NCBI GenBank assembly: GCA_964588635.1
Contig: CAZPQP010000002.1
Coordinates: forward strand, 1-33,479
From: an uncultured Bifidobacterium sp.
GTDB lineage: Bacteria > Actinomycetota > Thermoleophilia > Gaiellales > F1-60-MAGs149
Reading direction: 5' to 3'
Length of the DNA stretch: 33,479 nt
The notes under the pieces are model-generated. The model did not search any database. It was not told where the DNA came from and saw nothing but the letters and a program-made list of their open reading frames with translations. Position numbers and translations under genes: made by a program. Position 1 is the first letter of the stretch; the number at the start of each line of letters is the position of its first letter. Below are positions 1-33,479 of this stretch, piece after piece.

Positions 1-55
1 GGACCCGCGTCAGCGCAGCCTCTTCGATCTGCTCGCGGAGGGCAATCAATCATGA
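1..55. repeat. Terminal overlap. Bases 1-55 are identical to 33425-33479 and to 32513-32567, consistent with a circular or terminally redundant genome.
   Basis: Direct base-by-base comparison: ggacccgcgtcagcgcagcctcttcgatctgctcgcggagggcaatcaatcatga occurs at all three places. Confidence 0.9.
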
Positions 56-68
56 TCGAGGTGCCCCG

Positions 69-2165
69 GTGACCGCCGTGGCGCCGAAGCTCTCGCGCCT
101 CGGGCGCGCCGCGCTTATCTATGCGGCCGAGCACGGGTGGAGGGTGTTCCCGTTGCACTCGATCGTCGACGGGCGGTGCTCGTGCGGCGCCGAGACGTGC
201 ACCGGGACCAAGCCCGGCAAGCACCCGCGCACGACGCGCGGCTGCCTCGACGCCACGACCGATCTGTCGCAGATCAGGATCTGGTGGTCGCAGTGGCCTG
301 ACGCCAACGTCGGGATCGCCACGGGCGCAGGCCTGATCGTGATCGACATCGACCCTCGCCACGGCGGCGACGACGGTTTCGACGATCTCAAGACACGCCT
401 TGGCCCGTTGCCCGAGACCGTCGAGGCGCTCACGGGGTCCGGCGGGCGGCACGTCTATCTCTCGGTCCCCGAGGGCGTCACCGTGCGCAACAGCGCGTCG
501 CAGCTGGCGCCCGGCGTCGACGTGCGAGGCGAGGGAGGCTACGTGGTCGCGGCGCCGAGCACGCACGTCTCGGGACGCGGTTATGGCTGGGAGCTGTCGT
601 CGCGACCGGGAGAGGTCGACGTCGCACCGGCGCCGCAAGCCTGGCTCGACGCACTGACCCGCAAGCCCAAGCTCCGGGTCCTCGCCGGCGGCGCGGGCGG
701 CGACATCGTCGAAGGATCGCGCAACGAAACCCTGTTCAAGCGCGGCTGCAGCATGCGCGCGGCTGGGTTCGACGAGCCTGCCATCACGGCTGCGCTGCTC
801 TCCGAAAACGATTCGCGCTGCAACCCCCCGCTCGACCCCGCCGAGGTCAAGAGCATCGCAGCGTCGGCCGCGCGCTATCAGCCCGGCCTGTCGCCCGAAT
901 ATGCGGCCAAGCAGCGCAAGCCCGTGGCGCTCCCCGAGGCTCCAGCCGAGGAGGCCACGCCCGTCGTCGAGGACGATGGAGAGTGGATGCAGCGGCTGGC
1001 GCAGACCAAGGACGGCAAGCTTCGCGCGACTTTCGCCAACGTCTGCGCGGTGCTCCGTCACGATGCTCGCTATCGCACGCTGGCGCAGAACGCGATGACC
1101 CGCGCGCCCGAGCTCGACGGCCAGCGGGTCACCGACGCTCGCCTCGCCCGCATTCGCGAGGAGATCGAGATCGAATACGCGTTCACGCCGAGCGCCGATC
1201 AGGTCGCCAGCGCGGTGCTGCTCGTCGGCACCGAGCGGGAGCGTCACCCGGTGCGCGAATACCTCCGGTCCCTCACCTGGGACGGGGTCGAGCGCCTCGA
1301 TCACGTCGCCTCGACGATCCTCGGCGCCGAGCCGACACCGATCAATCAGGTCATGCTTCGAAGCTGGTTCGTCTCGGCCGTCGCGCGGGCGATCGAGCCC
1401 GGGTGCAAGGTCGACACGTCGCTGGTGCTCGTCGGCGGGCAAGGCGCCGGGAAGTCGAGTTTCTTTCGCGTGCTCGGCGGGCAGTGGTTTAGCGACAGCG
1501 GCGTCGATATCGAGTCCAAAGACGCCATGCTCCAGATCAACTCGGCATGGATCTACGAGTTGGGGGAGCTCGATCATGTGACATCGCGGGCGCACGCAGG
1601 GCGCATCAAAGCGTTCATCACGTCGCAGCGGGACTCGTTCCGCCCGCCTTATGGGCGGGTCATTGAAACGGTGCCCCGGCACAACGTGATCGTCGGCAGC
1701 ACAAACGAGACGCAATTTCTACAGGATTCAACGGGTGACCGACGATTCTGGGTTGTGCGCGTCGGGCAGATCGACCTCGACGCGCTGCACCGAGACCGGG
1801 ATCAGCTCTGGGCCGAGGCACTGGCGGCGCACCAGCGACGCGAGGGATGGTGGTTGGAACAGGCGGCCGAGACCGCACGCACCGAGGCGACCGAAGAGCA
1901 CCGGGTGGCCGACGTCTGGGAGGACGCCGTGGCGGCGTGGATCGCCACGCTCCCGGCGCACGAGTCGCGCGATATCACCACGCAGCGCGTCCTGCAGGCC
2001 GCCTGCCGCGTCGAACTGGAGCGCTGCGACCACCGGGCCTCGGCCCGCGTCGGGGCGATCCTGCGGCGCCTCGGGTGGACGCAGCGCGTCGTGCGCGTCG
2101 ACGGACGAAACACCCGCGTATGGGACGTGCAGGAGCCCGACGGGGCGTGGCGGCACCGCCCGTGA
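69..2165 (+). CDS. Bifunctional primase-polymerase / P-loop helicase-like replication protein: N-terminal prim-pol domain, PriCT-like middle region, VirE/D5-type NTPase C-terminal region.
   Basis: 698-aa ORF with a GTG start. The N-terminus (FPLHS...CSCG...GKHP...GIATG..LIVIDID...GGYVVAPPS-like) resembles bifunctional prim-pol proteins. SRNETLFKRGCSMRAAGF resembles the primase C-terminal domain. Walker A is VGGQGAGKSSF, followed by DSTGDRRFW as in the VirE/D5 family. Confidence 0.85.
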   Translation: MTAVAPKLSRLGRAALIYAAEHGWRVFPLHSIVDGRCSCGAETCTGTKPGKHPRTTRGCLDATTDLSQIRIWWSQWPDANVGIATGAGLIVIDIDPRHGGDDGFDDLKTRLGPLPETVEALTGSGGRHVYLSVPEGVTVRNSASQLAPGVDVRGEGGYVVAAPSTHVSGRGYGWELSSRPGEVDVAPAPQAWLDALTRKPKLRVLAGGAGGDIVEGSRNETLFKRGCSMRAAGFDEPAITAALLSENDSRCNPPLDPAEVKSIAASAARYQPGLSPEYAAKQRKPVALPEAPAEEATPVVEDDGEWMQRLAQTKDGKLRATFANVCAVLRHDARYRTLAQNAMTRAPELDGQRVTDARLARIREEIEIEYAFTPSADQVASAVLLVGTERERHPVREYLRSLTWDGVERLDHVASTILGAEPTPINQVMLRSWFVSAVARAIEPGCKVDTSLVLVGGQGAGKSSFFRVLGGQWFSDSGVDIESKDAMLQINSAWIYELGELDHVTSRAHAGRIKAFITSQRDSFRPPYGRVIETVPRHNVIVGSTNETQFLQDSTGDRRFWVVRVGQIDLDALHRDRDQLWAEALAAHQRREGWWLEQAAETARTEATEEHRVADVWEDAVAAWIATLPAHESRDITTQRVLQAACRVELERCDHRASARVGAILRRLGWTQRVVRVDGRNTRVWDVQEPDGAWRHRP

Positions 2166-27300: not shown

Positions 27301-27443
27301 TGCTCGACCTCCGGGGCGAGGGCCACGACGGCCCCAGCGACGCAGATCGCCCACGCACCGAGCGTCGAGGCGCCCTGCAGCGACAGGCCCGCGGCCGAGA
27401 CCGCGCCGACGATCGCGAGGGCCCATCCGAAGAGGCGGATCAC
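27297..27443 (-). CDS. 48-aa two-TM membrane peptide.
   Basis: Read by hand. GTG at 27443 overlaps the recT stop, and the stop overlaps the next start. The product is VIRLFGWALAIVGAVSAAGLSLQGASTLGAWAICVAGAVVALAPEVEQ. Confidence 0.45.
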   Translation of the reverse strand: MIRLFGWALAIVGAVSAAGLSLQGASTLGAWAICVAGAVVALAPEVEQ

Positions 27444-28279
27444 TCTGCCACCCCCTGCGCTGCGATCGCTGCCTTGAGAGAGGTGATCGTCTCACCGAGG
27501 GCCTTCGCACGGCCGACGAGCACCCGCCAGCAGCGCTCCTGCGCCGGACGCTCGTCGAGCGCGGCCACGTCGGTGCGTGCGGCCTGCCACAGCGACGCGA
27601 GGCCCGCGACGCTGGTGCACGCCTCGGCGCTGTCGCGGAGGTCACGGATCAGCGCCTCGGCGGGGTCGTCGGCCTCGGGATCCGGCGACGCGAGACCGCG
27701 CGCCTCGAGGGCTGCTGTCGCGACCCGCTGGGCGTCGTCAGGGAGCTCGACGAGCACCGCGCGCGGCGCCTCGACCGGACCCTCGACCTCGGGCTCCCCG
27801 CCGAGCTCCTCCGGGTCATAAAGGCCCAGCAGGACGTCGGGGTAAACCTCCCTCGCGAGGTCCGCAGCGACGCGGTGGCGGAGCATCGTCGCGGGATAGC
27901 TCTGCCAGATGCCCTTGCCAGACACGCCCGCGCGCTTTGCGTCGGCAGCCGTCCACGTCCTCGTGGCGTCGGTGGATTCGCCCTTGCGGCGGGTGGTGAT
28001 CGTGCAGCGCTCGGCCGTCGATTCGACGGTGCGCCACGACTCGCACAACCCGCTGCGCCTCACCACGGCCACCATGAGATCGGCGCTCAGCACCGGGCGG
28101 CCGTTGACCACATAGATCCCCCGGAGGCTCTGCGCGGGCGACAGCCCGAGCTCATGCCCGGTGATGATCAGCATGGCGGCCTCCTCGGGCCGCTTGCACG
28201 CCGTATAGCCGCTCGCCACCGCGATCTTCGCGAGGCGTTCCACGTCGTCGAGGCTACGGATTGCAATTCCATTCATCAT
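27440..28279 (-). CDS. recT: RecT-family single-strand annealing recombinase.
   Basis: 279 aa from ATG 28279, preceded by GGGAGACGAC. AKIAVASGY...ITGHELGLSPAQSLRGIYVVNGRPVLSADLM...WQSYPATMLRHRV matches the RecT family. Confidence 0.8.
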   Translation of the reverse strand: MMNGIAIRSLDDVERLAKIAVASGYTACKRPEEAAMLIITGHELGLSPAQSLRGIYVVNGRPVLSADLMVAVVRRSGLCESWRTVESTAERCTITTRRKGESTDATRTWTAADAKRAGVSGKGIWQSYPATMLRHRVAADLAREVYPDVLLGLYDPEELGGEPEVEGPVEAPRAVLVELPDDAQRVATAALEARGLASPDPEADDPAEALIRDLRDSAEACTSVAGLASLWQAARTDVAALDERPAQERCWRVLVGRAKALGETITSLKAAIAAQGVAE

Positions 28280-28401
28280 CGTCGTCTCCCTTGCGGAATC
28301 CCGTCTCGGGACTCCGGTGGCGGCTCGGGCTGGGCAGCGAGGGGATCGGAGGGGATCGTCTGCGCCCGAGCGGCCACCGGAGGGCCGAGGCCCTCGGGGC
28401 T

Positions 28402-28722
28402 TTATGCCAGTGTCGCCTCGGCGTCGAGCACGTCGGCGCCAACGCGCACGATCGCGGCCCACTGCTCGGCGGTCTCGGCCTCGATGGCCGCAATCCACCC
28501 GTCGCGACGCGCATCGCACACGGTCACGAAATCGGGGTCGCTGGCGAGAGTCAGGTCCTCGTCAGCCTGATCGAGAGCGCGCTCGGCGCGGTCCTCGCAC
28601 CAGCGACAGACGAGGGCGCCGTCGCGCACCTCGAGCACCGCAGCGACGTCACCATGGACGTCGCGGAGGTCGAGTTCGGCGGTCGGTGATCCACAGGCGC
28701 GGCATAGGTCGGTGTAGTGCAT
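28402..28722 (-). CDS. Strongly acidic protein with a CxxC...CxxC zinc knuckle, first gene of the leftward operon.
   Basis: 106 aa. CRAC at aa 7-10 and CRWC at aa 39-42. About 24 Asp/Glu against about 9 Arg, and no Lys. The SD motif GGGAGACGAC lies upstream. Confidence 0.6.
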   Translation of the reverse strand: MHYTDLCRACGSPTAELDLRDVHGDVAAVLEVRDGALVCRWCEDRAERALDQADEDLTLASDPDFVTVCDARRDGWIAAIEAETAEQWAAIVRVGADVLDAEATLA

Positions 28723-29066: not shown

Positions 29067-29830
29067 ACGCGCCGCAAGGGGGACACCTGCCTAGATGCCG
29101 CCGTCGCCACCGGCAACGGTGGACTCCCGCGGAGGACGCGCTCCTGCTGCGGGAGTGGGGGGAGCTCTCGTCGCGCGTCCTGCGGGAGCGCCTCGGTCGA
29201 ACCGGCATGGCGATCCTCGCGCGAGCGAAGGACCTCGGCCTCCCGCCAGCAAGCGCGCGGGCGGCGCCGCTGTCCGAGGCCGGTCGACGCCTCGGGATCA
29301 GCGGGATCACTGCGCAGCGCTTCGCCGAGTCCTGCGGGATCCGGCTCGACCGGCGCGCCTGCTGCGTCGTGCGGGAGACGTGCTCGGTCCTGCGTCTGGG
29401 CTGCGACGTCGACCAGCTCGAGGCGCTTTATGCGCAGCGCGTCCGGCGTGTGCTCTCCGTCGGCGAATGGTGCCGGTCGCGAGGTCGAGACCAGTCGACG
29501 CAGGGACGTCGACTGCGCGCAGCAGGGATCGCGTCTCAGCGCGGCGCACGGCTGCGGGCGCTCTATCCCGAGGCGCTGCTCGACGAGGTCTCTCACCACG
29601 GTCGACGCGGCCGATGGGTCACGCTGTGGCGTGCGATCCAAGGACTCGACCGCCTGCCGTGCGAGCCGTGGCTGCTGGCTCTCGCGGCCGTCGATATCGC
29701 TGCGGCCGGACGCGCGCCCGAGGGGGCTGCTGGCGACGCCGCGCGCGCGGCGGCTGAGTGGACCGAGCATCTCCCGCAGGGCCCGCTGACCCTCGCGACG
29801 CGTCTCGCTGTGGAGTCGGTGATCCCGTGA
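29063..29830 (+). CDS. Multi-HTH DNA-binding protein (Myb/SANT-like first repeat). Candidate replication-organiser or regulator.
   Basis: GTG at 29063 overlaps the upstream stop. RWTPAEDALLLREWG...ILARAKDLGL is Myb-like. Two further HTH-like segments follow: LSEAGRRLGISGITAQRF and LSVGEWCRSRG. Confidence 0.45.
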   Translation: MNAPQGGHLPRCRRRHRQRWTPAEDALLLREWGELSSRVLRERLGRTGMAILARAKDLGLPPASARAAPLSEAGRRLGISGITAQRFAESCGIRLDRRACCVVRETCSVLRLGCDVDQLEALYAQRVRRVLSVGEWCRSRGRDQSTQGRRLRAAGIASQRGARLRALYPEALLDEVSHHGRRGRWVTLWRAIQGLDRLPCEPWLLALAAVDIAAAGRAPEGAAGDAARAAAEWTEHLPQGPLTLATRLAVESVIP

Positions 29831-31122
29831 TCCTGCGGGACTACCAGCTCCGCGCGATCGACCTCGTGCGCGCGGCTTATCGGCGCGGGCGCAAGGCCGT
29901 CCTGCTGGTCTTGCCGACCGGCGCTGGGAAAACTGCCACAGCGAGTCAACTGATCGCGTGGGCCGTCGCGAGAGGGCGTCGCTGCCTGTTCTTGGTCCAC
30001 AGGCGCGAGATTGTCTTGGACACGCACCGACGATTGCTGGCGGCCGGCGTGCCCTGCGGCGTCGTGATGGCCGACGAAGTGCGCGTCGACGCGCCCGTGC
30101 AGGTCTGCTCGGTGCAGACGCTCGTCGCGAGGCAGCAGCATCCGGCGGCTGACCTCCTGTTTTGGGACGAGGCCCACCATTGCGCCGCAGAGACGTATCG
30201 CGAGATCCGCGCGCAATATCCGGCTGCCTGGCACCTTGGGCTGACGGCGACGCCCGAGCGCTCGGACGGCGCGCCGCTGGGAGACGCTTTCGAGCAGTTA
30301 ATCGCGCCGATCAGCGTGGCCGAGCTCGTCGCGGCTGGACACCTCGCACCGATCGACGTGATCGCGCCCGCAGGGCGCCTGCAGAGCGCGATCGGAGCGT
30401 CGCCCGCCGAGGCGTGGCTGCAGCACGGAGGCGGGCGCCCGGCGGTGATCTTCACGTCGACGATCGCGGAGTCGCGCGAAGCCGTTGCTGCTCTCGGCGA
30501 GCGCGCGGCGCACATTGACGGCTCGACACCGAAGGCGCAGCGCGACGAGATTCTGCGGCGTTTCGAGGCCGGGGAGCTCGACGTGGTGTCGAACTGCGCG
30601 GTGCTCACCGAGGGCTGGGACAGCGCGCGCGCCGAGGTATGCGTGCTCGCGAGAGGCTGCGGCAGCCTGCCCGTCTATCTGCAGACGATCGGCAGGGTGC
30701 GCAGGACCGGCGGCCGCACCGACAAGCGCTGTCTTTTGCTCGACCTCGCTGGCGCGGCGCACGAGCACGGCCTGCCCGACGAGGATCGTCAGTGGGAGCT
30801 CTCGCGCGGGCAGAGGGAGGTCAAGCCGAAGAGCGATCGAGAGTCGCTGTCGACGTGCGACCGCTGCGGGGCCGTCTTCGAATACGTGCGGCGCGGGCCC
30901 GTGTGCCGTCGCTGCGGCGCGCCGTGGCCACCGCCAGAGCGCGTGGCGATCCTCAGGCAGGAGCTCCGCGCAGTGCTTCCGACCTCGACGCCGTCGCAGC
31001 GCGACGCCGAGCTGCGGCGCCTCGAGCAGATCGCGCGACAGAAGGGCTATAAGCCCGGGTGGGTCGGCGTGAGGTTCAAAGAGCGGTTTGGTTTCTGGCC
31101 GAAGACACGGAGGGCGTCGTGA
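29827..31122 (+). CDS. SF2 DEAD/DEAH-box helicase with a C-terminal zinc ribbon.
   Basis: 431 aa. Motif I is LPTGAGKT, motif II WDEAHH, motif III LTATP, motif VI QTIGRVRR. The zinc ribbon is CDRCG...CRRCG. The C-terminal GYKPGWVGVRFKERFGFWP is common in phage helicases. Confidence 0.85.
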   Translation: MILRDYQLRAIDLVRAAYRRGRKAVLLVLPTGAGKTATASQLIAWAVARGRRCLFLVHRREIVLDTHRRLLAAGVPCGVVMADEVRVDAPVQVCSVQTLVARQQHPAADLLFWDEAHHCAAETYREIRAQYPAAWHLGLTATPERSDGAPLGDAFEQLIAPISVAELVAAGHLAPIDVIAPAGRLQSAIGASPAEAWLQHGGGRPAVIFTSTIAESREAVAALGERAAHIDGSTPKAQRDEILRRFEAGELDVVSNCAVLTEGWDSARAEVCVLARGCGSLPVYLQTIGRVRRTGGRTDKRCLLLDLAGAAHEHGLPDEDRQWELSRGQREVKPKSDRESLSTCDRCGAVFEYVRRGPVCRRCGAPWPPPERVAILRQELRAVLPTSTPSQRDAELRRLEQIARQKGYKPGWVGVRFKERFGFWPKTRRAS

Positions 31123-32567
31123 CACCAGCAGACGTGATCGAGGGCAAGGCGCGATGGTGCGTCGTCGAGGGCGATGCGCTTGACGTCGTCCGCGCCCTCC
31201 CTGCGGCGTGTATCGACGCGCTTGTGACGGACCCGCCCTCGGGCATCGCGTTCATGGGCGCGGAGTGGGACCGCGACAAAGGCGGGCGCGCGCAGTGGGT
31301 CGCGTGGCTCGCGGAGGTGCTCGGGCACGCTCGCGCCGCGACGCGCGACGGCGGTCGCGCGCTGGTGTGGTCGCTTCCGCGGACGTCGCACTGGACGGGC
31401 TGCGCCGTCGAGGATGCGGGGTGGTCGATCGAAAACACGGTGACGCACCTTTTCGGCACCGGCTGGCCCAAGGGAGCGTCGCAGTTGAAGCCCGCCGCAG
31501 AGACGTGGTGGATCGCGCGCAACGGGCGCAGCACGGCGTTGAACATCGACGCGTGCAGGGTGGGCGTGAGCAATCGCGTGCCGGGGTCGTTGTCGACGGC
31601 GCAGGGCTACAGCCTTCTCAGTCGCGAAACCGGCGCCGAGGACGGCCACAACCCCAACGTCGGCCGCTATCCGCCCAACGTCGTGTTCTCCCACGCGCCG
31701 GGGTGCGTCTGCGTCGGAGAGCGGCGGGTGCAGACGGCGTGGAGCGCCAACGGCACTCGCAAGGCCCCACTCGGATACGGCAGCGGATCCTCGGACGGAT
31801 CTGCCTGCGTCAAGCATTGCGACCCCGACGGCACCGAGACCGTCGAGGCGTGGGAGTGCGTCGAGGGGTGCCCCGTGCGCGAACTCGACGCGCAGAGCCG
31901 GGAGCTCACCAGCGGCGGCAAGCGCGGCCGGGAGGTTCGGGTCGACGCGATGCCCTCCGGCTGGACGGGGACCGTCATGCGGGAGCACGAGACCCTCGGC
32001 GACCGCGGCACCGCCTCGCGCTTCTTCCCCTGCTTCCCAGCCGACGAGGGCGCGCTGTTCGGGTACCACGCGAAGCCGAGCCGCGCGGAGCGGGACGCCG
32101 GGGTAAGCCTCGACGCCGTGCCGCGCGAGACGCCCAGCGGCAACAACCGCACTCGCTACTGCGCCGCCTGCGGCCTGACTGACAACGGCACAAACGACCA
32201 CTCTCAGTGTGGCGACCGCATCGTCAACGCGATAGCGGGGCCGCAGGCCAACAACCACCCGACGGTCAAGAGCATTGCGCTCATGCGGTGGTTGGTCCGC
32301 CTTGTGACGCGCCCCGGAGACGTCGTGCTCGACCCATTCGGCGGCTCCGGCACCACGGGCGTCGCGGCTCTCGCGGAGGGCCGTCGCGTCATCCTCGTCG
32401 AGCGTGATGCGCGCTTCGCGGAGATCGCCCGTCAACGGCTCACGCACGCTACGCCTGACCTCACCGCGCCCGTGCGAGTCCGCGCCCGTGCGGCGACGCC
32501 TGCGCCCGCCGCGGACCCGCGTCAGCGCAGCCTCTTCGATCTGCTCGCGGAGGGCAATCAATCATGA
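31119..32567 (+). CDS. DNA methyltransferase (beta-class N4/N6 type), with an atypical motif IV and a Cys-rich central region.
   Basis: 482 aa. Motif IV is TDPPSG, motif I LDPFGGSGTTGVAA, and NHPTVKS corresponds to the HPTxKP motif. The motif order IV...I indicates the beta class. Confidence 0.8.
   Translation: MTPADVIEGKARWCVVEGDALDVVRALPAACIDALVTDPPSGIAFMGAEWDRDKGGRAQWVAWLAEVLGHARAATRDGGRALVWSLPRTSHWTGCAVEDAGWSIENTVTHLFGTGWPKGASQLKPAAETWWIARNGRSTALNIDACRVGVSNRVPGSLSTAQGYSLLSRETGAEDGHNPNVGRYPPNVVFSHAPGCVCVGERRVQTAWSANGTRKAPLGYGSGSSDGSACVKHCDPDGTETVEAWECVEGCPVRELDAQSRELTSGGKRGREVRVDAMPSGWTGTVMREHETLGDRGTASRFFPCFPADEGALFGYHAKPSRAERDAGVSLDAVPRETPSGNNRTRYCAACGLTDNGTNDHSQCGDRIVNAIAGPQANNHPTVKSIALMRWLVRLVTRPGDVVLDPFGGSGTTGVAALAEGRRVILVERDARFAEIARQRLTHATPDLTAPVRVRARAATPAPAADPRQRSLFDLLAEGNQS
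32458..32567 (+). repeat. 110-bp direct repeat, copy 1 (3' end of the methyltransferase gene).
   Basis: Identical base for base to 33370-33479. The flanks diverge at 32457 versus 33369 and at 32568 versus the base following 33479 (base 56 after circular wrap). Confidence 0.95.
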
Positions 32568-32893
32568 GTGAGGGAGCACTGCAGGACGCCATCCGCGTCG
32601 CACTCTCCGCCGAGCCCGATCTGGTGCTCTGGCGCAACAACGTCGGCGTTGCGCTGCACGAGCGCGGCGCACGCGTGCGTTATGGTCTCGCGCCGGGGAG
32701 CGCCGACCTGATCGGCTGCCTCGCCGGTCGCTTCGTCGCGTTGGAGGTCAAGACCCCCACGGGACGCCTCTCGCCCGAGCAGCGGTCGTGGGCGCTCGTC
32801 GTGCGGCGCTTCGGCGGTTTCTGTGCTGTGGTCCGCAGCGTCGACGAGGCCCGCGCTGCAATCGCCCGCGCGAGAGAGGGAGCGCTGGAGTGA
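32564..32893 (+). CDS. VRR-NUC domain nuclease (PD-(D/E)XK, Holliday-junction-resolvase-like).
   Basis: 109 aa. GSADLIG...RFVALEVKTPTGRLSPEQRSW matches VRR-NUC. Its ATG lies inside the repeat (ATGA overlap). Confidence 0.75.
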   Translation: MSEGALQDAIRVALSAEPDLVLWRNNVGVALHERGARVRYGLAPGSADLIGCLAGRFVALEVKTPTGRLSPEQRSWALVVRRFGGFCAVVRSVDEARAAIARAREGALE

Positions 32894-33207
32894 CGCCTTA
32901 TGTGATCGGCGTCGGCGTGGTCCTCACGGCCGAGGGAGCGATCGTCGCGCTCTGCGTCGAGCGCCTCGGCCAGCGCAAGCTCTTGCGGTGGGCCTCGACG
33001 GCCTCGACGGCGCACGCTGCGGCCCTCGAGGGCGTCGAGCGCGCGCTGGCCCTGCAGACCGCCACCGAGGCACCGAGGGAGATCCTGCTGCGCCAGCAGA
33101 GCGTGGTGTCGCAGCTGCGCTCCCCCGCCGTGCGCTGGTCGTCAGAGCGCGCGCCCGAGGGGGAGCACCCGGCCGTCGCGGCTGCGTGCCGTCACGCTCA
33201 GGCCTAG
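32890..33207 (+). CDS. Hypothetical protein, possibly a degenerate RNase H-like fold.
   Basis: GTG at 32890 overlaps the upstream stop. 105 aa. Its layout loosely parallels an RNase HI core, but acidic catalytic positions appear to be replaced. Confidence 0.4.
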   Translation: MTPYVIGVGVVLTAEGAIVALCVERLGQRKLLRWASTASTAHAAALEGVERALALQTATEAPREILLRQQSVVSQLRSPAVRWSSERAPEGEHPAVAAACRHAQA

Positions 33208-33213
33208 ACAGAC

Positions 33214-33232
33214 CGATATCACTGTGATATCG
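33214..33232. promoter_or_regulatory. 19-bp perfect palindrome, a candidate operator 8 nt upstream of the RHH gene.
   Basis: CGATATCAC-T-GTGATATCG. It contains a TGTGATATC extended -10-like element. No SD lies before ATG 33240. Confidence 0.5.
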
Positions 33233-33239
33233 CTTTCGC

Positions 33240-33479
33240 ATGGGAGCACCACGAAAGCAGCCTCTTCTGATCCGCCTGTCTGACAATGACAAGGCGTTTC
33301 TCCAACGCCTCGCCGACGCGCACTCTGTCTCGCTGGCCGCCGCGCTGCGGATGATCCTGCGCGGGCAGAACCTCACCGCGCCCGTGCGAGTCCGCGCCCG
33401 TGCGGCGACGCCTGCGCCCGCCGCGGACCCGCGTCAGCGCAGCCTCTTCGATCTGCTCGCGGAGGGCAATCAATCATGA
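33240..33479 (+). CDS. Ribbon-helix-helix (CopG/MobC-like) DNA-binding protein carrying the duplicated 35-aa tail.
   Basis: 79 aa. KQPLLIRLSDNDKAFLQRLADAHSVSLAAALRMILRG follows the RHH pattern. The C-terminal sequence LTAPVRVRARAATPAPAADPRQRSLFDLLAEGNQS is identical to the methyltransferase C-terminus. Confidence 0.65.
   Translation: MGAPRKQPLLIRLSDNDKAFLQRLADAHSVSLAAALRMILRGQNLTAPVRVRARAATPAPAADPRQRSLFDLLAEGNQS
33370..33479 (+). repeat. 110-bp direct repeat, copy 2 (3' end of the RHH gene). Its last 55 bp equal bases 1-55.
   Basis: Base-for-base identity with 32458-32567, at an offset of 912 bp. Confidence 0.95.

Follow-up and report, generated by a model that had tools for sequence, protein, structure and literature searches.

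An exact 110-nt repeat in a phage contig, probably a recent copy of a methyltransferase tail module set into the end of an RHH gene

The 110-nt Repeat and Its Two Copies

The window analyzed here is the whole of contig CAZPQP010000002.1 (33,479 nt), from a tailed phage, and our subject is a 110-nt direct repeat near its end (R, with copies R1 and R2) through which a DNA methyltransferase and a small RHH protein come to have the same C-terminal tail. R1 (32458..32567, + strand) forms the 3′ end of the N6_N4-class methyltransferase gene, where it encodes an Ala/Pro-rich linker, a QRSLF motif and a stop lying in an ATGA that overlaps the start of a VRR-NUC nuclease gene. R2 (33370..33479, + strand) lies between ...CTGCGCGGGCAGA and TCGAGGTGCCCCGGTGA, 17 nt ahead of the native stop of the RHH gene. 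Comparison with related phage contigs suggests that R1 is the source copy and that R2 probably arose recently when the methyltransferase tail module was copied, in this lineage only, to an ectopic site in the RHH gene just before the primase gene. The module would comprise the linker, a peptide resembling clamp-binding motifs, the stop codon and the start ATG that overlaps it.

The copies match at 110 of 110 positions and R is maximal at that length, with mismatches in the neighboring bases on both sides (G/A before, G/T after). Both the methyltransferase and the 79-amino acid open reading frame (ORF) that holds the RHH domain terminate in LTAPVRVRARAATPAPAADPRQRSLFDLLAEGNQS and have their last 35 amino acids in common. 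An annotation made earlier from the sequence (the first-pass annotation) had described this perfect repeat and common C-terminus, and we confirmed both, along with the difference in their flanks. Terminal overlap aside, the other direct-repeat families of the window are at most 43 nt long and at most ~76% identical, so much shorter and less alike that R is far beyond chance. The copies are spaced 802 bp apart, and the bracketed unit, from the VRR-NUC gene through a lineage-specific ORF (the ORFan) to the RHH gene, measures 912 bp with the length of one R copy included. R contains two copies of the 13-mer CCGCGCCCGTGCG at a distance of 16 nt (32464-32476 and 32480-32492, and likewise in R2), which code for VRVRARA of the linker.

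A role for R as a structured RNA or regulatory element was rejected: its fold z-score is −0.33, Rfam gave no match at E ≤ 1, and scans of 31000-33479 detected no promoter-like or terminator-like sites. We also rejected a mobile element (insertion sequence, miniature inverted-repeat transposable element or integron cassette), as R has no terminal inverted repeats at its ends and no target duplication beyond 2 nt (GA, at one joint), a domain search returned no recombinase within the 912-bp unit, and no further copy of R was found in three public collections (viral, metagenome and genome).

Copy 1 and the Methyltransferase Family

The methyltransferase was compared with its 120 best homologs (P0007-P0126), which are 44-73% identical to it and come from various phage backbones. 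Approximately 115 of the 120 end in a tail of the same kind, with a short motif after an Ala/Pro-rich linker. The pattern Qxx[LMIF][FLP] occurs in the last 20 amino acids of 67 homologs and D[FY]GPLF in ~47 more, the motif background being 0.6% of internal 20-amino acid windows. Examples include RQRSLFDLL, RQLSLLGG, RQLDLFGG, SQLELF and QPSLF. Two related contigs, L007 and L008, have the same junction of methyltransferase, R and VRR-NUC, with R 97-98% identical to that of the window. Judged by these comparisons, R1 is the original copy and stands in its ancestral context. Among the proteins of the window, only the methyltransferase and the 79-amino acid chimera bear the motif.

The methyltransferase gene is itself mosaic when set against L007 and L008, with 88-99% identity over its 5′ 400 nt and 3′ 300 nt and only 42-75% identity per 100 nt in the center (window 31500-32260). 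The diverged center presumably corresponds to the target-recognition region, so specificity may have been swapped.

Copy 2 and the RHH Gene

Relatives of the RHH protein were sought in a collection of 5.8 billion proteins. Those related to the 79-amino acid ORF have 48-50 amino acids, with the window's own protein as the sole exception, and it alone combines RHH with the tail. What had been annotated as a tail common to two proteins is thus no feature of both families, being native to methyltransferases and foreign to RHH proteins.

Five contigs from three run-accession groups (L001 and L002; L003 and L004; and L006) are 87-98% identical to the window. Their RHH proteins are 48-49 amino acids long (native forms P0002, P0003 and P0006) and end in RGQIEVPR or RGQISVEVTR before the stop. 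All five read ...CTGCGCGGGCAGATCGAGGTGCCCCG[A/G]TGACC, with the RHH stop overlapping the primase start and R absent at the site; in L001 and L002 the sequence is ...CGCGGGCAGATCGAGGTGCCCCGATGACC, which translates to ...RGQIEVPR and a stop. The window equals the relatives' sequence plus 110 nt after CAGA, with zero target bases lost, and deleting 33370-33479 from it gives back the native RHH ORF exactly. Since the relatives without R2 carry an intact RHH end that excision of R2 restores, R2 appears to be the derived copy. Distant RHH homologs from IMG/VR (L013, L015, L016, L023 and L024) likewise end a few residues past LLRGQ or LLRGA, with a stop/start overlap and no tail, and RHH relatives overall have 47-60 amino acids. 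On this alignment evidence, R2 is an insertion into an existing RHH 3′ end and not a family feature of RHH.

The insertion swaps the last five residues of the RHH protein for the 35-amino acid methyltransferase tail, complete with its own stop. The terminal ATGA of R2 reopens the orphaned RHH codons as the mini-ORF MIEVPR (ATGATCGAGGTGCCCCGGTGA; 52..72, + strand), whose stop still overlaps the primase GTG at 69. Read against the native forms, this mini-ORF is the cut-off end of the RHH gene, its five final codons and stop, now opened by the ATG at the R2 3′ end. Translation of the primase probably remains coupled. The first-pass annotation had already noticed the mini-ORF with its overlap of the primase GTG, as well as the VRR-NUC ATG at the end of R1 (ATGA), and both were found as described. 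At the right joint, R and its target have the last two bases GA in common, a 2-nt microhomology, and the left joint is blunt.

Exact look-ups for the RHH-tail and VRR-NUC proteins returned no match, and cluster look-ups placed the exact window proteins in a single NCBI record only. Searches for close relatives with the ORFan and methyltransferase (IMG/VR and JGI) and with RHH (IMG/VR) found none. Members of the VRR-NUC cluster (P0249, P0250 and P0252) sit on Logan contigs of 4.7-5.4 kb.

The Tail as a Candidate Clamp-Binding Module

The window tail consists of the Ala/Pro-rich linker and Q-R-S-L-F, 10 residues from the C-terminus, and its candidate clamp-binding peptide is ADPRQRSLFDLLAEGNQS. 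The β-clamp-binding consensus is QL(S/D)LF and is typically C-terminal (PMC9690074); position 2 of the window motif is R, not L. Homolog tails show QLSLL, QLDLF, QLGLF, QPSLF and GPLF, and the likeness to known clamp-binding proteins (PMC9690074) is one of motif. The motif is placed outside the folded domain, with the Pfam domain of the methyltransferase ending at amino acid 458 of 502 and the tail modeled at low confidence in the AlphaFold2 (AF2) prediction for the chimera. The tail resembles a β-clamp-binding motif, from which we infer clamp binding.

The same kind of ending is found on an unrelated methyltransferase, a D12 enzyme. Qxx[LMIF][FL] occurs in the last 20 amino acids of 47 of its 120 homologs (P0127-P0246; background 0.1%), whose endings include RQPSLFDLGGGAK and, in P0180, RQRSLFDLLAGGAR, and the ending QPSLFDRRPEAP is found in both the N6_N4 and D12 families. 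The DNA is similar as well: an N6_N4 gene on L074 (2562-2659) and a D12 gene on L076 (2958-3052) are 84-86% identical over ~100 bp, in a stretch that extends from shortly before the motif into the intergenic DNA beyond the gene, with unrelated catalytic parts. Because two unrelated methyltransferase families have the same tail and the same tail DNA, catalytic modules appear to have been swapped while the tail was kept, and by this comparison the tail is a portable module marking the right-hand breakpoint of methyltransferase swaps.

The first-pass annotation had proposed that the repeat is a conserved boundary sequence. Such a sequence does exist, at the methyltransferase slot and in the DNA common to L074 and L076, but it is not a boundary of the three-gene unit. 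It is similar to the boundary sequences of mosaic phages (PMC3029335) in that the tail DNA is common to unrelated methyltransferase genes and lies at the swap breakpoint. It is unlike them in being a coding sequence for a conserved peptide, whose retention may reflect function and not a recombination target.

A phmmer search with the bare 35-amino acid tail against 1.84 billion representatives gave one match only, P0247 (82 amino acids), a methyltransferase remnant that is internally deleted to ~16 N-terminal and the last 66 residues and retains the full tail RQRSLFDLLAGVR. At that sensitivity, the tail as a widespread domain at unrelated loci, a prospect raised with the first-pass annotation, was rejected.

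We propose that the tail may be a host β-clamp tether of phage methyltransferases, giving replication-coupled methylation. Should the peptide bind DnaN, it would bring phage methyltransferases to freshly made DNA, which would offer an easy means of staying ahead of host restriction and a bacterial counterpart of DNMT1-PCNA. That system (cited in PMC9690074) would be alike in that a methyltransferase is drawn to newly replicated DNA by a short clamp-binding peptide, and it differs in the clamp, the motif (a PIP box), the enzyme class and the domain of life. In the literature library that we searched, no paper reported a bacterial or phage DNA methyltransferase with a clamp-binding motif. A likely clamp tether on unrelated phage methyltransferases may be the more useful by-product of this analysis and would be worth following up. 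A bolder proposal is that the tail is a self-contained, portable clamp tether exchanged at the DNA level between N6_N4 and D12 folds, with methylation coupled to the fork, and that it is now spreading to a third protein, so that the primase operon would have an RHH regulator tethered to the clamp; taken as a whole we consider this doubtful.

Methyltransferases of cultured actinophages end in ...DSAQPVLL (Mycobacterium phage Bernal13 gp60; L077), ...EVALFQV (Arthrobacter phage DrYang gp79; L079) and ...PVFDFEGLL (Chickaboom gp46; L078). The end of the Bernal13 protein fits Qxx[L][L], and this protein could be tractable for clamp-binding tests.

The Chimeric Protein

The chimeric gene (33240..33479, + strand) encodes 79 amino acids, with the RHH domain at residues 1-43 and the methyltransferase tail at 44-79. 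The AF2 model has a strand at 10-12 and helices at 15-27 and 32-40 (pLDDT 78-84), a β-α-α arrangement, and gives the tail a pLDDT of 46-56 with a short helix over SLFDLL. The top Foldseek matches are all RHH proteins (AmrZ, CopG, MazE and Arc) at E ~1, which is non-significant for so short a domain. Pfam RHH_1 matches six of nine family members, with a best E of 3.6e-4 and under the gathering score, and sequence matches in the PDB are VapB26 and MazE7 (E ~0.007); the sequence matches agree with RHH families but stay below threshold.

It is possible that the fusion was selected, as an adaptive motif capture that ties the operator-binding regulator of primase genes to the sliding clamp and couples regulation to replication, in the manner of MuC/Mor of phage Mu. 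The RHH fold is intact, translation of the tail follows the frame used in the methyltransferase and puts the motif close to a free C-terminus, primase coupling is retained through the mini-ORF, and phage Mu offers transcription factors whose clamp-binding motifs are functional (bioRxiv 10.1101/2025.01.04.631326; PMC12867686). The Mu proteins are likewise small phage DNA-binding regulators with a clamp-binding motif, and the window phage has Mu-like head genes; their motif, however, is N-terminal, conserved in the family and experimentally required, whereas here it is C-terminal, found in a single genome and acquired by duplication, on an RHH protein and not a Mor/C-family one. Against selection of the fusion, the RHH-tail combination is seen in one genome, none of ~10 RHH relatives has such a tail, and the in-frame outcome has a 1-in-3 chance of arising at random. 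The phase of the left joint and the position of the right joint at ATGA/CAGA are all that the neat outcome requires. Insertions that broke RHH or the primase would go unseen, and survivorship is enough to explain an intact domain, a tail with its own stop and an ATG that restores coupling. We therefore regard adaptive capture as very unlikely, and the RHH-tail fusion would most likely be a tolerated by-product of the copying of R.

Gene Order around the Repeat

The first-pass annotation saw the three bracketed genes as a cassette that could be gained and lost. We compiled a synteny table of 61 IMG/VR relatives, retrieved through VRR-NUC and scored against the window proteins, and the order helicase, VRR-NUC, variable genes, RHH and PrimPol was conserved. 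VRR-NUC is kept next to the helicase in all relatives retrieved, none of which is without VRR-NUC, and the close ones also keep the 105-amino acid ORFan and RHH. What varies is the content of the slot between helicase and VRR-NUC. It holds the N6_N4 enzyme in the window, L007 and L008, the unrelated D12 enzyme in L006 (379-1263) and a C5-type enzyme in L013 (971-1798), and it is empty in at least 15 loci, where VRR-NUC follows directly after the helicase. Homology between L006 and the window breaks off at 31102 and resumes exactly at 32565. As far as synteny can tell, DNA methyltransferase genes have a hot spot between helicase and VRR-NUC, and the bracketed unit from VRR-NUC to RHH is a conserved core and not a cassette.

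There is a precedent for a repeat of this kind. In mycobacteriophage Island3 (Cluster I), the last 18 residues of gp68 (~50 bp) are also those of gp67, encoded upstream; the repeat copies enclose a gene that the sister phage Brujita lacks, and the case was interpreted as the footprint of recombination at a mosaic junction (PMC3029335). By analogy, VRR-NUC, the ORFan and RHH could have been inserted or exchanged as a cassette at R as a conserved boundary, to be gained or lost by recombination between R copies. In both phages a short direct repeat (~50 bp there, 110 bp here) brackets genes and gives unrelated neighbors one C-terminus, RecT is encoded in the window, and deletion would leave the methyltransferase intact and the primase coupling in place. 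The Island3 case differs in being a true insertion or deletion of the bracketed gene, whereas here the bracketed genes are always kept, R2 is what the relatives lack, and the repeated piece is a recognizable peptide module. In the nearest relatives the supposed cassette is joined to PrimPol without R, R2 interrupts an older RHH 3′ end whose remnant persists, and the varying element is the methyltransferase. Among all retrieved relatives, where the order is kept throughout, none is without the unit and none has it flanked by a repeat; a self-comparison of 76 loci gave no other dispersed repeat (≥40 bp, ≥90% identical) bracketing this region. A search of related genomes for forms with and without the cassette, which had been suggested as a check, thus brought up only the difference in R2, and we consider gain or loss of a cassette to be highly improbable.

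Recombination between R1 and R2 would formally leave the methyltransferase, the repeat and the primase, as had been predicted, and the presence of RecT (27440..28519, − strand; PF03837, E = 1e-9, 38.7 bits against a cutoff of 24) was confirmed. From what is established about single-strand annealing proteins, a direct repeat of this length and spacing is expected to delete in a phage with RecT, and the 110-bp copies may serve as a substrate for RecT-mediated deletion. This would not be a neutral cassette loss, because a conserved nuclease and a putative regulator would go with it, and a product without the conserved VRR-NUC and RHH genes would be selected against.

Origin of the Second Copy and the Contig Assembly

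The ancestral order would have been helicase, methyltransferase-R, VRR-NUC, ORFan, RHH (48 amino acids) and PrimPol, with 4-nt overlaps between neighbors. From its two joints, R2 may have arisen through copy-paste illegitimate recombination or template switching. A homology-driven origin, by RecT or through a boundary sequence, was rejected, as the target site has no homology to the flanks of R beyond GA. Two-step models were also rejected, whether a tandem duplication of the R-N unit followed by deletion or an earlier methyltransferase insertion between RHH and primase followed by decay; they need extra coincident breakpoints and are less parsimonious.

The event appears to be recent. The copies are identical though relatives differ by 2-3% in this stretch, and by our own calculation 0.97^110 = 0.035. 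Since the copies are identical where relatives differ, the insertion would postdate the divergence from L001 and L002, barring homogenization of the copies.

Several points weigh against this account of R2. The chimera comes from one NCBI record and was never seen in an independent assembly, and no single relative contig spans methyltransferase-R through PrimPol, the ancestral order being stitched together from overlapping relatives. The insertion mechanism is read from the two joints, and clamp binding from motif resemblance and conservation. The remaining points concern the assembly. R is exactly 2 × 55 nt long, the contig starts at R[56], the assembler graph is a figure-eight, and the identity of the copies could partly have been imposed by graph simplification.

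The contig could accordingly be an assembly artefact or come from a mixed population, in that it traces a single path through a de Bruijn graph shaped like a figure-eight, whose big loop and 802-bp loop have the R edge in common. One variant would be a 32,512-bp circle (methyltransferase-R-PrimPol) with a separate or tandem R-N unit; another, a junction from chimeric reads. Positions 1-55 repeat 33425-33479, a circular overlap of the k = 55 type that lies wholly inside R2, and the contig runs from the branch vertex at R[56] and ends at R[110]. The first 55 nt of the contig duplicate the last 55 nt, making the circle 33,424 bp. The perfect identity of the copies and the restriction of the chimera and exact strain to a single NCBI record would also fit an artefact. 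However, in this graph, where a 32.4-kb and an 802-nt edge are joined by the R edge, the geometry shows ambiguity and not a wrong sequence. Both new junctions, GGGCAGA/ACCTC and CATGA/TCGAGG, are in the contig at one ancestral point with no base lost or gained, and the ancestral joint of RHH and PrimPol, GGGCAGATCGAGG, is absent from it. Given how such assemblers work, a k-mer assembler should not be able to invent 55 junction-spanning k-mers per side, and there is no common stretch of at least 10 nt at the joints to cause a false join. A resolution into two molecules would still need both junctions, and would be a recombination product of the single-molecule form. On balance an artefact or mixture seems unlikely, with a chance that is still worth keeping in mind, and we retain the ectopic copying of the tail module as the probable origin of R2.

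An exact 55-bp direct repeat was also observed on L009 (12055-12109 and 12210-12264, 155 bp apart), an unrelated ENA scaffold with a homologous methyltransferase; its length equals a common k and it may be an assembly artefact.

If R2 did arise by such copying, R is the ordinary kind of mark that illegitimate recombination leaves in mosaic phage genomes, though an unusually clean one. It would show how a gene can receive a copy of a short functional peptide together with a stop/start overlap while the operon stays intact, with a repeat left behind that is likely to be unstable in a RecT-bearing phage.

Genomic Context

The left border of the variable methyltransferase slot is an SF2 helicase gene (29758..31122, + strand; ResIII/Helicase_C), assigned by its domains and synteny. 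The methyltransferase gene (31119..32567, + strand; PF01555, E = 1.1e-25) encodes 482 amino acids from its likely GTG start at 31119; the longest ORF (31059-32567) has 502 amino acids, with the catalytic (Pfam) domain ending at about residue 458 and the tail as the last 35. VRR-NUC (32564..32893, + strand; 109 amino acids; PF08774, E = 8.7e-10) adjoins the helicase in many relatives. The lineage-specific ORF (32890..33207, + strand; 105 amino acids) starts with GTG and has a hydrophobic N-terminus, gave no Pfam or PHROG match, and is 88-98% identical in L001-L006. Stop/start overlaps of 4 nt link these neighbors: GTGA at 31119 (helicase and methyltransferase), ATGA at 32564 (methyltransferase and VRR-NUC) and GTGA at 32890 (VRR-NUC and the ORFan).

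A perfect 19-nt palindrome, CGATATCAC-T-GTGATATCG (33214..33232, no strand assigned), lies 8 nt upstream of the RHH start, confirming the one annotated there before. It is the same in L001 and L002 and imperfect in L003 and L006 (GCGATATC.C.GTGGTATCGC). We presume it to be the RHH operator, likely autoregulatory for the RHH-primase operon.

Downstream, across the circular join, the PrimPol/PriCT/VapE-like primase-helicase gene (69..2165, + strand) encodes 698 amino acids (PF09250, 3.6e-46; PF05272, 8.1e-79). A PrimPol search of GTDB genomes for the phage host gave no match and no prophage relative. Elsewhere the genome has the genes of a tailed phage, among them Mu-like head genes and those for a terminase and baseplate J. 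In the nearest cultured phages the capsid and primase are only 27-37% identical, and nucleotide likeness to cultured phages is confined to ~100-180 nt of the methyltransferase catalytic core.

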